Origin: a virus
Taxonomy: Duplodnaviria > Caudoviricetes
DNA: 37,296 bases
Reading direction: 5' to 3' (one strand)
Virus record (IMG/VR): IMGVR_UViG_3300026543_000090
Location: 1-37,296 of that record
Under the pieces are notes generated by a model, which saw only the letters and a program-made list of their open reading frames with translations, ran no database searches and was not told where the DNA came from. The position numbers were made by a program, and so were the translations under genes. Position 1 is the first letter of the stretch. Every line of letters begins with the position of its first letter. Of the stretch, positions 8,717 through 35,739 are shown in pieces.

Positions 8717-9472
8717 ATGACAGATATGATTAAAACAGGATTTAAAGATTTAGACGATCAGATTTCAATTCTTAAGCCAGGTCATTTGATAGTCGTTGCA
8801 GGACGTCCTGCAATGGGGAAAACAGCTTTTGTTATTAGTATTGCTTCCCATATAAGCATAGATATTAATAAAAAAGTTTTATTTTTTTGTTTAGACATAC
8901 AACAAACTTCTAAAAGAATAATTTGTAATACATTTGATTATGGAATTGATGAAAAGAATTATGAAGAAGTTATTACTAAACATGAAGAAATGGATGTTTT
9001 TAAGATATTGAAGAATTTTTCAATAGATGATCGTCTAGATTTAAATTCTATAATATTCCGTAGTAAAAAGGAAATTATAGAAGAAGATTTAAAACTATTG
9101 ATTATTGACTGTATTCAACTTGTTAAATTTGATAAGGATATAGATATATCAACTGTATTAAAAAATCTAGCTGTAGAGTTAAATATTCCTATAATTTGCA
9201 CATCTCAAATGTCCCGTAAATCAGAAGAAAGATTTGATAAAAGACCTGTAATTACAGATCTTATAGATTATTCTCCAATAGAACAAAATATAGATACATT
9301 TATTTCTATTTATAGAGAAGAATACTATAATGAAGATAGTATTTCTGAAAATGTAGATATACATATATCAACGGTTGAAAACAATATAGCTAAAGATGTA
9401 GATATTAATTTAAGTTTTAAAAAAGAAACAGCATCTTTTAAAAAAGAAACAACCTCTTTTAAAAACTTTTAA
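8717..9472 (+). CDS. DnaB-like helicase C-terminal domain only, with degenerate motifs
   Basis: TGFKDLD...PGHLIVVAGRPAMGKT, LKNLAVELNIPIICTSQMSR, DKRP...IEQ; no N-terminal domain. Confidence 0.85.
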   Translation: MTDMIKTGFKDLDDQISILKPGHLIVVAGRPAMGKTAFVISIASHISIDINKKVLFFCLDIQQTSKRIICNTFDYGIDEKNYEEVITKHEEMDVFKILKNFSIDDRLDLNSIIFRSKKEIIEEDLKLLIIDCIQLVKFDKDIDISTVLKNLAVELNIPIICTSQMSRKSEERFDKRPVITDLIDYSPIEQNIDTFISIYREEYYNEDSISENVDIHISTVENNIAKDVDINLSFKKETASFKKETTSFKNF

Positions 9473-14166: not shown

Positions 14167-15566
14167 ATGTCAAGTATTACGACAGTCGCGGTTTTGCCGC
14201 CGGCGGTCAGAGAGTAAAAATTTTAATTATCATATATTGCTCTCTATAAATCTTCTCTAATTGACTTGGAAGCCTAAAGCGAAAGCCATGGTGACAAGGG
14301 GCAAGCACAAGATGAATATCTTGTTGCAGCCTGAACGACTTAACGAGAAGATCTCGAAAGAGGAAGCGAAAGTCTGAACTAGATTGTAAAGATCTAGAGG
14401 AAGATCCGAAGAGATTTTCCCGCTTACATTTATGTAAGTCATTAAAAAGTAACAGATTGATTATGACCGTCTTCTTCTGATGACAGCGTATCCAACTCTT
14501 GTGCATACAAAATTTGCACAAAAACGAGTTTTACCCGAAAAAATGGGCGATACCATAGTTTTCCGAAGATACTCACGGCTTGATACAGTACCTGTACCGT
14601 TAGTTGATGGAATCACTCCACCAGGGAGTCCATTATCTGCGACGGACATAAAAGCAAGGGTCGATTTTTACGGTAATTTTGTGACCGTAACCAACCAAGT
14701 GGAGCTTACCGTTGAAGATCGCGTTTTAAACGAAGCCGCACGTTTGCTAGCACAGAACCTGGCTCAAACACTCGACGAGGTCACTCGAGATGTCTTAGCT
14801 AGTACAAGTTCAGTGTTGCAATGTGCAAACGGGGTAAATGGTAACACACCAACTGAATTAACGAAAGCAGATATTGATATTTCTGTCAGGACCTTATTAG
14901 GGCTTGATGCAGAAATGATTTCTGAAGTCGTAGTTGGTAGAGATGCATTCGGTACAACTCCTGTAAGACCAGCATTTTGGGCTTATATTGATACCGACTT
15001 ACTAGATGACTTAGAGCAAGTAGCAAACTTTGCTCATTCATCACAGTACGCGAACCAGCAGAGCGTTCTAGACTCAGAATGGGGAGCAACGGGTAGAAAA
15101 ATTGCTCGTTTAAAACTAAACCTTATTGACTTGGAAGCCTACGGCGATAGCTATGGTGACAGGGGCGAACCCGAATGGGACGTTGAACGACTAAGTGGTT
15201 TGGCTGCGTAAGCAGAAGCGATAGTCTGAACTAGGTTGTAAAGATCTAGAGGAAGATCCGAAGAGGTTTTCCCGCCTAGAGATAGGTCATGAAAGTAACA
15301 GAATGAATGTAAGATGGCTTTACACTTCAGTAGGAAGTAAAAGCGGTGCATCTCCAAACGTATTTAATAATTTCATAATTGCAAAAGAAGCGTATGCAGT
15401 TGTTCATTTACGATCAGAAACAGGCGAATTCTATGTAGAGCCACTTGGTTCTGCTGGAAGCGCCGACCCCCTCCACCAGAGAGGGAGTGTTGGGTGGCAA
15501 CACCCATTTGTATCTAGAATTTTAAACGACGACTTTATGTTGTCTCTAACTTCAACCCATAGCTAG
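14167..15566 (+). CDS. Major capsid protein (N4-gp56 type), join(14167..14215,14460..15094,15306..15566), 314 aa after splicing
   Basis: GAGGA RBS, then MSSITTVAVLPPAVRE|YYDRLLLMTAYP...GDTIVFRRY...FYGNFVTVT...SEWGATG|NVRWLYTS...DPLHQRGSVGWQ. The exons total 945 nt in one frame. Confidence 0.9.
14216..14459 (+). ncRNA. Group I self-splicing intron 1 (244 nt, no ORF)
   Basis: 5' exon ends in U and the intron ends in G. P1: AGAGAGU(14209-15)/GCUCUCU(14239-45) with U.G at the splice site. P3: CUUCUC/GAGAAG. P7: GACUU/AAGUC. GNRA-capped P8. Excision restores the frame. Confidence 0.9.
15095..15305 (+). ncRNA. Group I self-splicing intron 2 (211 nt, no ORF)
   Basis: P1: AACGGGU(15088-94)/GCUCGUU(15104-10) with U.G. 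P3: CUAAACC/GGUUUGG. P7: GACUA/UAGUC. Ends AGUAACAGAAUG. Excision gives ATG|NVRW (amino acids) in frame. Confidence 0.9.
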
Positions 15567-32223: not shown

Positions 32224-32916
32224 TTAATTTTGTAAAACAACACTAAGATTCTTCTTCACGAAAAAATTAGCTATCGCTGTATATGGAGCAACCAGAAATA
32301 TGATGATGAATTTTATCAACAGAGTAAACATGATGACATGCCATACATTGCCCCATATATCTTCAAAGAAGCTCATCAATCCATAGAACACTAAAGTGTC
32401 TATCGTTTGAGACATGAAAAGAGATATCATAACTCTAGTAGTAAATTTTTTAGATCCAAATCTCTGTTGAAGCCATGAAAAAAATCTAATATCTAATAGC
32501 TGAATAAATATAAATGTGATGAAAGAGACAGCTGTAATGGTAGGCATACATGAAAATATAGCTCCATAGTGCGCTTGAGTTGTATCATATCCATTAGGGA
32601 TAAAGAACATATGTAACTGCTGAAGAGTGACAAAGCCAAAGGTACACAGAGCTGCAATAAGGACATGGATACGAGCGGATCGTCTACCATAATACTCTTG
32701 CATAAGATTAAGGCCTAGAATGTAGCAAACTCCAAGAGCCTTGCAGGTCGTTACATCCAGGCCAAAGATATTTACTTGCTTCAGGATCATTAGATTTAAT
32801 GAAATAGCCACTACAGTAAGCCACGCATTAACAGCTTGCTCGCCTATTTTTAGACAAAGCATTGTGATCCAAGAAATAGCAAATATCTGTATCAATAGAA
32901 GATAAAAATTTAGCAA
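32224..32916 (-). CDS. yhhQ: Queuosine precursor transporter (YhhQ / Vut_1 family)
   Basis: About 7 TM helices; NL..LKQVNIFGLDVT, LNLMQEYYGRRSAR, Q.LDI..F, R...SLF.SQTIDTLVF motifs. Confidence 0.85.
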   Translation of the reverse strand: MLNFYLLLIQIFAISWITMLCLKIGEQAVNAWLTVVAISLNLMILKQVNIFGLDVTTCKALGVCYILGLNLMQEYYGRRSARIHVLIAALCTFGFVTLQQLHMFFIPNGYDTTQAHYGAIFSCMPTITAVSFITFIFIQLLDIRFFSWLQQRFGSKKFTTRVMISLFMSQTIDTLVFYGLMSFFEDIWGNVWHVIMFTLLIKFIIIFLVAPYTAIANFFVKKNLSVVLQN

Positions 32917-33293
32917 AAATCTTCCCAGTCAGTTGCTTCTACATCATCTCCTTCACATACATATATATATCCATCGGTATCTAGATATTTCTCTTGTACC
33001 CTATAGGGATGAGCTGCAAGCATGCATTGATATTTTTTACTCCACCACATATTGTGGCCTTCTTTCCAGGATTTTCTTCTTACTTTTACACTATATTTAG
33101 TTTTTTCAGATGCTTGTATAAAATCCATTATTCCTTCCTCTGTATTTAATAATTTTAAATTTTGAAATTTTCTAATTACGGATCTTCTAATTTGAATGCA
33201 CTCATTCTTAGACAAAATTTCTTTGCATTTTGTAATCGAAGATTGTAAAAAACCATTGTAATAACTGTCAAATAAAAAAGTTTTTACTATCAA
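32910..33293 (-). CDS. Hypothetical protein with DUF2829-like C-terminus
   Basis: KVRRKSW...DDVEATDWE motif; TTG start after GGAG. Confidence 0.55.
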   Translation of the reverse strand: MIVKTFLFDSYYNGFLQSSITKCKEILSKNECIQIRRSVIRKFQNLKLLNTEEGIMDFIQASEKTKYSVKVRRKSWKEGHNMWWSKKYQCMLAAHPYRVQEKYLDTDGYIYVCEGDDVEATDWEDFC

Positions 33294-34165: not shown

Positions 34166-35017
34166 TTAAAAGGAAAGCCTCCATACTAGAGATGGATTTC
34201 CCCGATAAATTTCTAAATCAACATCCTTAAGCTGAGGAATTTTACTGTAATTTATGCTTCCTTTTCTCATAAATCTTGTATATTTAATTCCATGACCCTG
34301 TGCATTTTGTTCGTTGCATATTTCCTTAAGAAGTTTCCTGTCTTCTTCATCTTCATTTTTAAGATCTTTTATCTTTGAATATCTAGAGATACATCTACTA
34401 GAAATTTCCTTCCATATAGATGATTCACTCATATCTTGATAATCTCTATCAGTCAATGTTGGCTCTTTAAAATTAATCATCATATCCCAGAACTCTTTTT
34501 CTTCTTTTTTGAGATACTCTAGATATTCATCATCTTTTTCAAATTCAACGAGAGCCATATCTCCATTTCTTAAAGAAAAATAATGTCCTATTTCAATGCC
34601 TAAATGCTGTACACAAGCCAGCTGATGTTGGACTTGAGGGATATATTTTTCTGGAATCTTTCCCGACTGAGCAATCTGATGATCTTTTTCACCAGGATTT
34701 TTCAACTCAACCATTCTTTTCTTTTTACGGGAAATACCATCTAAAGATGCTCCCATATATTTAATGCTTGGATTAAAAACGATATCAGGCTCAACAGATA
34801 TACCAGTGTATACCTGATAAGCTAATCTGGAATCTTGCTCACTCTCAATTCCATAGCGCATAGCACTATTTTGTTGTTGTGCAGGACCTAGACCAAGCTT
34901 CTCCCTCCATAGTTGATTCTGAGTCCTCCATGGAGACACACCGACTATTATCGGTGCATCTGAAGCCATGATATGATTTTTCCTCATGTCAATCCATTCT
35001 TGTGTTCTTTGTTTCAT
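34166..35017 (-). CDS. YqaJ-like viral recombinase / lambda-type exonuclease
   Basis: QRTQEW...RK.HI.ASDAP.I.GVSPW, AMRYG...E, MGASLDG, VELKNP, Y.PQVQHQL motifs; GGAGG RBS. Confidence 0.92.
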   Translation of the reverse strand: MKQRTQEWIDMRKNHIMASDAPIIVGVSPWRTQNQLWREKLGLGPAQQQNSAMRYGIESEQDSRLAYQVYTGISVEPDIVFNPSIKYMGASLDGISRKKKRMVELKNPGEKDHQIAQSGKIPEKYIPQVQHQLACVQHLGIEIGHYFSLRNGDMALVEFEKDDEYLEYLKKEEKEFWDMMINFKEPTLTDRDYQDMSESSIWKEISSRCISRYSKIKDLKNEDEEDRKLLKEICNEQNAQGHGIKYTRFMRKGSINYSKIPQLKDVDLEIYRGNPSLVWRLSF

Positions 35018-35025
35018 ATGCCTCC

Positions 35026-35739
35026 TTAAAATGGTAGTGCTGGTTCTTCTTGTGATAATCGTGATGCTCTTTCAAGTATAAGTGGATATGCATCCGTAGA
35101 TAATTTCTGTAGAGAATCTAACTTATAATATTCTAAAACATTTTGTATGTATTCTTGATTATCTCCAATTAAACTATACAATTCCTTTGCTTGTTCAAAT
35201 GAGATAGTATCAGATTTTTTTTCAGAATATTTTCCTGATGTAGAACCATTCCATGGATCACCCCCTTCGAATAAGACATCCAAATTGACTGGATTTTCTT
35301 TGATAGCCTCCTGAATAGAAGAGTCTAGTTTTTTGTGAGGAACGGGTGTAACCATATATTTAGTCTCTTTCCCATTTCCACTTTTATTAATTTTCACGTC
35401 ATATTCTCTAAAATCTCCCCATTCAACATCATTCCCTAAACTGGATAGAGTCTTCAAAATACTATTTTGAGTAATCTCAAGAATAAATAGAGCTTTTCGG
35501 TGATAGTCCCATACATTTAATGTCCAAAAAGCACGAATTGGCTTATCTGGATTGAAACTGTTTAGAGGCTTTTCATCAGCTCGATATCTGTAAGGTTTAT
35601 TTTCTTTCCAATCTATCCATCCACAAATAGGACGTTGCACGATACGAAGGCGATTATCACCCTGTTCCATTTCTTTCATCCTCCAATATGAATGAGGACT
35701 TTTTAGCTCTTCAAAACCGTATGGTAAAAATTGATTCAT
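35026..35739 (-). CDS. Putative ssDNA-binding/annealing protein
   Basis: GDNRLRIV...LEITQ.SI...WGD...YDVKI.KSG.GKETKY.V.P pattern; SSB-like tail EEPALPF; adjacent to the exonuclease. Confidence 0.6.
   Translation of the reverse strand: MNQFLPYGFEELKSPHSYWRMKEMEQGDNRLRIVQRPICGWIDWKENKPYRYRADEKPLNSFNPDKPIRAFWTLNVWDYHRKALFILEITQNSILKTLSSLGNDVEWGDFREYDVKINKSGNGKETKYMVTPVPHKKLDSSIQEAIKENPVNLDVLFEGGDPWNGSTSGKYSEKKSDTISFEQAKELYSLIGDNQEYIQNVLEYYKLDSLQKLSTDAYPLILERASRLSQEEPALPF

Follow-up and report, generated by a model that had tools for sequence, protein, structure and literature searches.

The two small group I introns in the major capsid gene of this phage are probably mosaics: in the history that we favour, homing or conversion at the DNA level, site by site, followed by loss of open reading frames (ORFs) and recombinational exchange of modules, with each site keeping its own guide, gave rise to the ORF-less introns seen today. 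An earlier note on the same DNA had described them as sisters with re-targeted guides. The sequence comparisons indicate instead that introns 1 and 2 are not sisters, and that they have in common only one RNA domain, which was likely swapped by recombination. Throughout, the window denotes the whole stretch of DNA that was analysed, 37,296 bases in length, and its features are collected in Table 1.

Table 1 Coordinates of the capsid gene, its two introns and the sites discussed in the text.
Feature	Position	Strand	Remarks
Window (whole virus record)	37,296 bases		CheckV 100% complete
Major capsid gene	14167-15566	+	three exons, two introns
Exon 1	14167..14215	+	16 codons + 1 nt; last 7 nt are the exon strand of P1
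Exon tip	14208..14215	+	3 silent differences from the intron-less allele; joint 14207->14460 with 8 letters between in X1, X3 and X4
Intron 1	14216..14459	+	group I, 244 nt, ORF-less, inside Tyr17
Intron 1 address module	14216..14250	+	P1 loop, P10, guide 14239-14245
Intron 1 catalytic core	14251..14375	+	P3-P4-P5-P6-P7-P8
Intron 1 P9/P9.1 module	14376..14425	+	94% identical to that of intron 2; contains the 30-nt block
Exon 2	14460..15094	+	635 nt; N4-gp56 family major capsid protein
Site after Gly144	14842..14843	+	empty in the window; near-identical intron 2 copy in relatives; joints 14844->15100 and 15305->14843
Intron 2	15095..15305	+	group I, 211 nt, ORF-less, after Gly228
Intron 2 address module	15095..15115	+	guide 15104-15110, the same as in L120 at codon 228
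Intron 2 catalytic core	15116..15227	+	
Intron 2 P9/P9.1 module	15228..15277	+	common to intron 1
Exon 3	15306..15566	+	ends at the stop codon

Searches against PHROGs and Pfam showed that the window encodes a terminase, a P22-like portal and a major head protein. Exon 2 alone scored 147 bits against TIGR04387 (curated cut-off 60), which places the capsid protein in the N4-gp56 family. Removal of 14216-14459 and 15095-15305 gave a 314-aa protein that is collinear with unbroken capsid proteins, with identities of up to 87%, and no third intron was found in the window. Among the best 80 of 128 viral loci, eight contain a related intron somewhere in the capsid gene; in the remaining loci of these 80 the gene aligns unbroken, with a few cut by contig ends. 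The nearest capsid proteins of GenBank phages are 28–34% identical, and intron matches in these phages were limited to a single weak one (E 0.7), to intron 2, which occurs in two records. Two of the seven genome matches to capsid relatives are Chlamydiae MAGs (L214; L215:2501-3073), with one relative (85%) on a 36-kb contig and the other (69%) within a Rhabdochlamydia contig of 223 kb, a hint that environmental chlamydiae may have tailed phages or prophages of this kind. The five other matches sit in unrelated MAGs and may be mis-binned.

Several further genes of the window deserve mention. A DnaB C-terminal ATPase domain stands alone (8717-9472, 251 aa) between the terminase and portal genes, and the region 32224-33293 contains a Vut_1 family transporter-like gene and a weak Tad2-like match (Thoeris anti-defence), just below the Pfam cut-off. 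Products encoded at 34166-35739 and 1493-1894 are an exonuclease of the lambda type, a single-strand binding protein resembling gp32 and a RusA resolvase. No RecT/Erf-type recombinase was identified in the window; an assignment of the 35026-35739 protein as RecT-like proved unsupported, as it looks gp32-like.

Both introns adopt the group I architecture. A fold comprising P1 and P3 to P9.2, without P2, was drawn by hand from intron 1 and counted on 33 ORF-less introns of the family described below, where 94.7% of 1868 cells were paired and 42/57 pairs showed compensatory change; slid controls reached at most 49% pairing. In this fold with its P3–P7 pseudoknot, covariation was found for 7/7 pairs of P3 and 5/5 pairs of P6, while P7 was 100% paired and contains an invariant G-C, the G-binding pair. 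The U-G pair of the 5' exon U with the guide in P1 is present in 31/33 aligned introns, the two exceptions being rows misaligned in P1. Both window introns have a 7-bp P1 and end in G (G14459, G15305), and their removal restores the host frame. No P2, P7.1 or P7.2 was seen in the family alignment A1. The Rfam scan of the whole window returned 0 group I matches at E<=1, but an Rfam match is a database criterion rather than a mechanistic feature, and the family is compact and devoid of P2. Single-sequence folding gave z-scores of -4.5 for intron 1 and -1.3 for intron 2, the second value being uninformative because of the pseudoknot. Because of the group I structure and the need for a full capsid protein, both introns are predicted to self-splice.

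The resemblances from which a sister relationship had been proposed are largely real, and they differ in what they say about this pair. The 17-nt block is identical at 14260-14276 and 15125-15141, as described, and occurs in 46/73 other family introns, a count that is inflated because the search pattern contained most of the block. The similar 3' ends are likewise present, but the AGTAACAGA end is a family motif found in 49/73 other introns and thus fails as a trait specific to the pair. The 30-nt block, identical at 14384-14413 and 15236-15265, is private to the window introns (0/73 other family introns). Each guide (GCUCUCU in intron 1, GCUCGUU in intron 2) pairs 7/7 with its own exon end, in agreement with the note, and cross-pairing with the exon end of the other intron reaches 5/7 or 6/7. 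Both introns are indeed free of ORFs, the longest stop-free frames spanning 48 (intron 1) and 38 (intron 2) codons in sense and 81 and 50 codons in antisense. Skipping of the 635-nt exon 2 is out of frame, as had been stated, and translation then halts after 16 codons. If the P9 blocks of the two introns recombined with each other, exons 1 and 3 would be fused in the wrong frame and selection would remove the product; in contigs, an exon-2 deletion by crossover within the shared block collapses into the repeat, and no such joint was among those listed for close relatives.

The catalytic cores tell a different story from the P9 domain. Between introns 1 and 2, the P3-P7 cores are only 62% identical and rank 63rd and 46th of 72 related introns for one another, and a core tree joining the two introns was rejected (p-AU 0.034); they also differ in their P3, P6 and P8 types. 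The core of intron 1 finds its nearest relatives at codons 257, 291 and 169, the closest being L223 at codon 257 (86%). The core of intron 2 groups, with full support, with those of introns at codons 291 (96% to L227, 94% to L102, and 89%) and 141 (87%), and shares only 69% and 63% with the two other codon-228 introns. The cores are short (113 columns), and the trees are therefore weakly resolved. The 50-nt P9/P9.1 domain is the only mutual best match of introns 1 and 2, with an identity of 47/50 (94%) and rank 1 of 72 in both directions, followed by relatives at 80-82%. In a triplet test with L227, informative sites split 0:33 for the core but 12:2 for P9 (Fisher p 2e-9), and the ancestry changes abruptly where P7 ends.

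A direct sister relationship arising through guide re-targeting could claim the 79% identity over aligned columns, the mutual best P9 match and guides that differ at only two positions, but given the core ranks, the tree test and the different helix types we find it hardly credible; it survives only with a later replacement of one whole core, which is itself module exchange. The shared P9 block, in turn, may come from a circulating pool rather than from the neighbouring intron, because 4/2226 pairs from different phages and sites also reach an identity of >=94%, i.e. at least 94%, and L223 contains the same P9 hairpin as the window introns. A search of viral contigs for the shared P9 hairpin pattern gave 0 matches.

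The family context was obtained with a motif from the shared P4/P5 block, which retrieved 107 viral loci, mostly N4-gp56-like capsid genes; targeted scans added more, and the sample is biased toward introns resembling those of the window in P4/P5. Boundary calling, in which candidates below the score and P1 thresholds were dropped, kept 75 distinct introns at 27 sites, 55 of them short (195-320 nt) and 20 longer than 600 nt. Later on, one intron without a core, one unsegmented and three mis-segmented introns were dropped, and the neighbour comparisons of address, core and P9 use 70. Long introns occur at codons 83, 104, 261 and 299, none of them at the two sites of the window. With the window included, codon 17 holds six complete introns (one more is cut by a contig end) and codon 228 holds three, all ORF-less.

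As a general trend, the modules of an intron have different nearest neighbours. The closest match sits at the same site in 49/58 introns for the address, 26/58 for the core and 17/58 for P9, and core and P9 have a common nearest neighbour in only 10/70 introns. Same-site pairs are nevertheless more alike on average (core 0.72 vs 0.67). General concerted evolution of co-resident introns was considered and rejected: 16 co-resident pairs were no more alike than background (core 0.64 vs 0.67, P9 0.65 vs 0.64, p 0.31). Host capsid relatedness showed no link with intron similarity to the window (Spearman p 0.25-0.99). Some members stand out individually. In L114, five family cores lie within or close to a single capsid gene, some 30 pattern loci (L088, L110, L111, L148 and others) have a family core without a match to the capsid protein of the window, and in L232, L234 and L235 it is P8, not P6, that contains an insert. 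L082 has, in its codon-299 intron, a sense ORF (1031-1711, minus) with CxxC motifs and without a Pfam/NCBIfam match.

The alternative named in the note, in which each intron is closest to ORF-bearing introns at its own site, fails as well: tree tests rejected same-site clades (p-AU 0.009 and 0.002), and neither codon 17 nor codon 228 yielded an intron with an ORF. In its general form this account assumes two ordinary homing events with subsequent ORF loss and no module exchange, the shared blocks reflecting constraint and sparse sampling. It would accommodate the family-wide occurrence of the 17-nt block and 3' end, the greater average likeness of same-site pairs and the existence of family members with a homing endonuclease gene (HEG). 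However, the P9 and P9.1 stems vary freely with compensation (13/14 pairs), so that constraint does not account for the P9 identity observed, and the 96% core match to L227 across sites 228 and 291, between phages whose capsid proteins are 46% identical, needs a transfer. We therefore consider this account very unlikely; the population contigs presented below, the triplet test and the same-site tree test have already largely refuted it.

The note had recognised no HNH, GIY-YIG or LAGLIDADG gene, and profile and six-frame searches of the 37-kb genome bear this out. Neither the 50 ORFs compared with PHROGs nor the 55 compared with Pfam (of 88 ORFs) gave a nuclease, six-frame HNH and GIY-YIG searches of the window returned 0 matches at E<=1, and the LAGLIDADG profile of the family reached a best E of 0.39 against 530 stop-to-stop frames. 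Neither window intron encodes a homing endonuclease. The proposed search for ORF-bearing relatives did find LAGLIDADG-bearing introns, at other sites only. Among 73 relatives 20 introns are long, and 17/20 gave an antisense ORF in the P6 loop with a single LAGLIDADG motif, with nuclease ORFs at codons 83, 104 and 299. Pfam LAGLIDADG_1 was detected in 9/17 antisense ORFs at E<1e-3, five of which exceed the cut-off, and the best solved relative is I-MsoI (one ORF tested). Free-standing LAGLIDADG_1 genes were found in 0/5 related records, a count to be read with Pfam missing about half of the nucleases of the family. The antisense P6 genes (L084, L116, L123, L217 and others) are each shadowed by a long open frame in sense orientation, and a few profile matches are themselves in sense (L101, L118, L147, L232).

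Close relatives of the window phage were found in sequencing runs from marine sediment, namely in X1-X4, the four with the largest share among eight runs, from three studies; their contigs are about 95% identical to the window, and the listed runs with such relatives included no RNA run. The evidence consists of short assembled contigs, none spanning the whole capsid gene. Intron 1 is present in X2 and absent in X1, X3 and X4. Silent changes tied to its presence number three in the last 8 exon bases vs one in the next 164 (X1), and this exon tip is likely a co-conversion tract, co-conversion being a known mark of homing (PMC2988022). The empty allele mispairs with the intron 1 guide beside the splice site, and only 6/63 intron-less alleles pair fully with this guide. 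These three silent differences of the intron-less allele, and its mispairing with the guide, speak against reverse splicing, one of the routes suggested in the note, as the origin of intron 1. As far as the contigs tell, the pattern fits DNA-level conversion, be it gain or loss, and not reverse splicing or loss through spliced cDNA. Presence and absence among close relatives, together with changes in the flanking exon, are traits that intron 1 has in common with mobile (homing) group I introns.

In X2, X3 and X4, a copy of intron 2 follows Gly144. It differs from intron 2 at 10 positions in 208 nt in X4 and at 4 in 133 nt in X2, and a 414-nt contig of X4 bridges both of its junctions. The four listed core differences of the X4 copy form two compensatory pairs (P7, P8), none is listed in P9, and the 4-5 unlisted differences presumably lie in the guide region. 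Three of the first five bases are not those of intron 2, and the divergence is concentrated at the 5' end (Fisher p 3e-4, with a boundary chosen after seeing the data). Since these first bases diverge while the body barely differs, the address appears not to have been copied together with the body. In X1 and X3, contigs that start in the 3' end of a codon-144 intron continue across a 252-nt exon into the codon-228 intron, and both introns are thus on one molecule. The idea that one ribozyme body occupied two similar sites of the gene therefore holds for intron 2 and the codon-144 copy, which has a near-identical body and is its closest relative, and fails for introns 1 and 2. A codon-144 intron with the core of intron 2 was not among the four codon-144 matches or the three core matches in viral contigs. 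The exon between codons 144 and 228 (window 14843-15094) keeps the reading frame, which would allow relatives with both introns to lose 84 capsid residues by skipping or deletion, and a crossover of this pair would likewise be in frame. Other loose ends of X1 and X3 contigs correspond to family introns of other phages, in exon contexts matching codons 88, 181 and 291.

For this second pair, true re-targeting has to be weighed. Reverse splicing or ectopic insertion would have copied the whole intron from one of codons 144 and 228 to the other, a small guide change would have fixed the copy, and intron 1 would have arrived independently and acquired the P9 block afterwards. The almost identical bodies, both on one contig in X1 and X3, would be expected from such a copy; the exon ends are alike (AAACGGT and AACGGGT), a one-base shift turns the codon-144 guide of other phages (GCCGUUU) into the codon-228 guide, and the other codon-228 introns have unrelated cores. 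The address of intron 2 matches codon-144 addresses in length and one of them at 81% identity, which fits an older re-targeting. A recent copy sits less well with the 5' bases, which differ while the body is nearly unchanged, with L120, where the codon-228 guide precedes a different core and a resident address was hence available, and with the occurrence of the same core at codons 141 and 291 behind addresses typical there. The diverged 5' loop and L120 weigh against re-targeting as the latest event, less so as the first, and overall we regard it as unlikely. It is similarly a bold and rather improbable proposal that a nuclease-free intron jump has been caught between these codons through a one-base guide shift, with an address of about 20 nt and exchangeable modules forming a kit. 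If true, this kit would let ORF-less introns colonise dozens of capsid sites, and the contigs would be a living record of site gain.

The mosaic history that we prefer could proceed in three steps. To begin with, each intron would be a compact P2-less group I ribozyme that splices itself out, a structure established by covariation and an activity predicted from it. Homing by an antisense single-motif LAGLIDADG nuclease in the P6 loop would then spread members of the family, and either the ORF would be lost later or the intron would ride on conversion tracts started elsewhere; for codons 17 and 228 themselves, homing is extrapolated from other sites. Finally, the conserved P4, P7 and 3'-end blocks may act as crossover points, a putative mechanism for the mosaicism seen in the alignments, by which cores and P9 domains would move between introns at different sites. 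The outcome would be P9/P9.1 common to the introns at codons 17, 144 and 228 and a whole body common to codons 144 and 228. The lambda-type exonuclease, gp32-like protein and RusA of the window could take part in these exchanges.

In this family a single gene offers many insertion sites, the address is separable, and the same ribozyme body occupies two sites in a natural population, where conversion and re-targeting can be told apart. It also serves as a warning that similar neighbouring introns need not be sisters. Introns of 200-250 nt that Rfam misses lead to mis-called capsid genes, and the introns of this family are candidate small ribozymes. The family is compact and undescribed, and behaves as known phage group I introns do. 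A search of the openly accessible literature found no description of this capsid intron family; Supplementary Table S1 of PMC11878797, which covers split phage genes, may bear on this novelty.

Among known systems, orf142 of Staphylococcus phage Twort is a gene for a virion structural protein that is split by several group I introns (PMC10136302, PMC11878797). It resembles the window in having two highly similar introns and exon skipping as a possible by-product; however, Twort introns 2 and 3 belong to subgroup IA2 and flank a skipped 23-nt exon, whereas here the exon has 635 nt and the likeness is confined to P9. Mycobacteriophage LittleE has a capsid intron with a bottom-strand LAGLIDADG-like ORF, and a 156-bp segment is 98% identical to the ORF-less tail intron of BAKA/Optimus at another site; splicing was demonstrated by RT-PCR (PMC3706429). 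Those sites lie in different genes and phages, while the sites of the window family lie in one gene. Two profiles of the window's intron family found no match in the LittleE and BAKA introns, which thus represent a different ribozyme family, although the nuclease profile of the window's family gives a weak match (E 4e-8) to the ORF of LittleE. Group I introns were also described in the MCP genes of Delta/Zeta crAss-like phages (PMC7886860), which are large gut phages with introns found via protein domains, in contrast to the ORF-less, Rfam-missed introns of a 37-kb phage.

Module exchange itself has precedents. At the omega site in the mitochondrial 21S rRNA of yeast, gene conversion was given as the explanation for chimeric group I introns and for the gain or loss of HEGs (PMC4059233). 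That exchange took place at the same site in different strains, whereas here it would link different sites of one gene. In phage T4, domain shuffling at conserved core blocks reportedly produced hybrid ribozymes from td, nrdB and sunY, a laboratory observation in genes of DNA metabolism. The introns described here differ in that their mosaics arose in nature and involve many sites within a capsid gene. Ectopic transposition of sister introns has been inferred for fungal rDNA (PMC1299323). Over the ribozyme core, introns 1 and 2 are not each other's closest relatives, whereas intron 2 and the codon-144 copy are, be it through transposition or conversion. The latter pair shows with unusual clarity, in a natural population, a single ribozyme body occupying two sites within the same gene.
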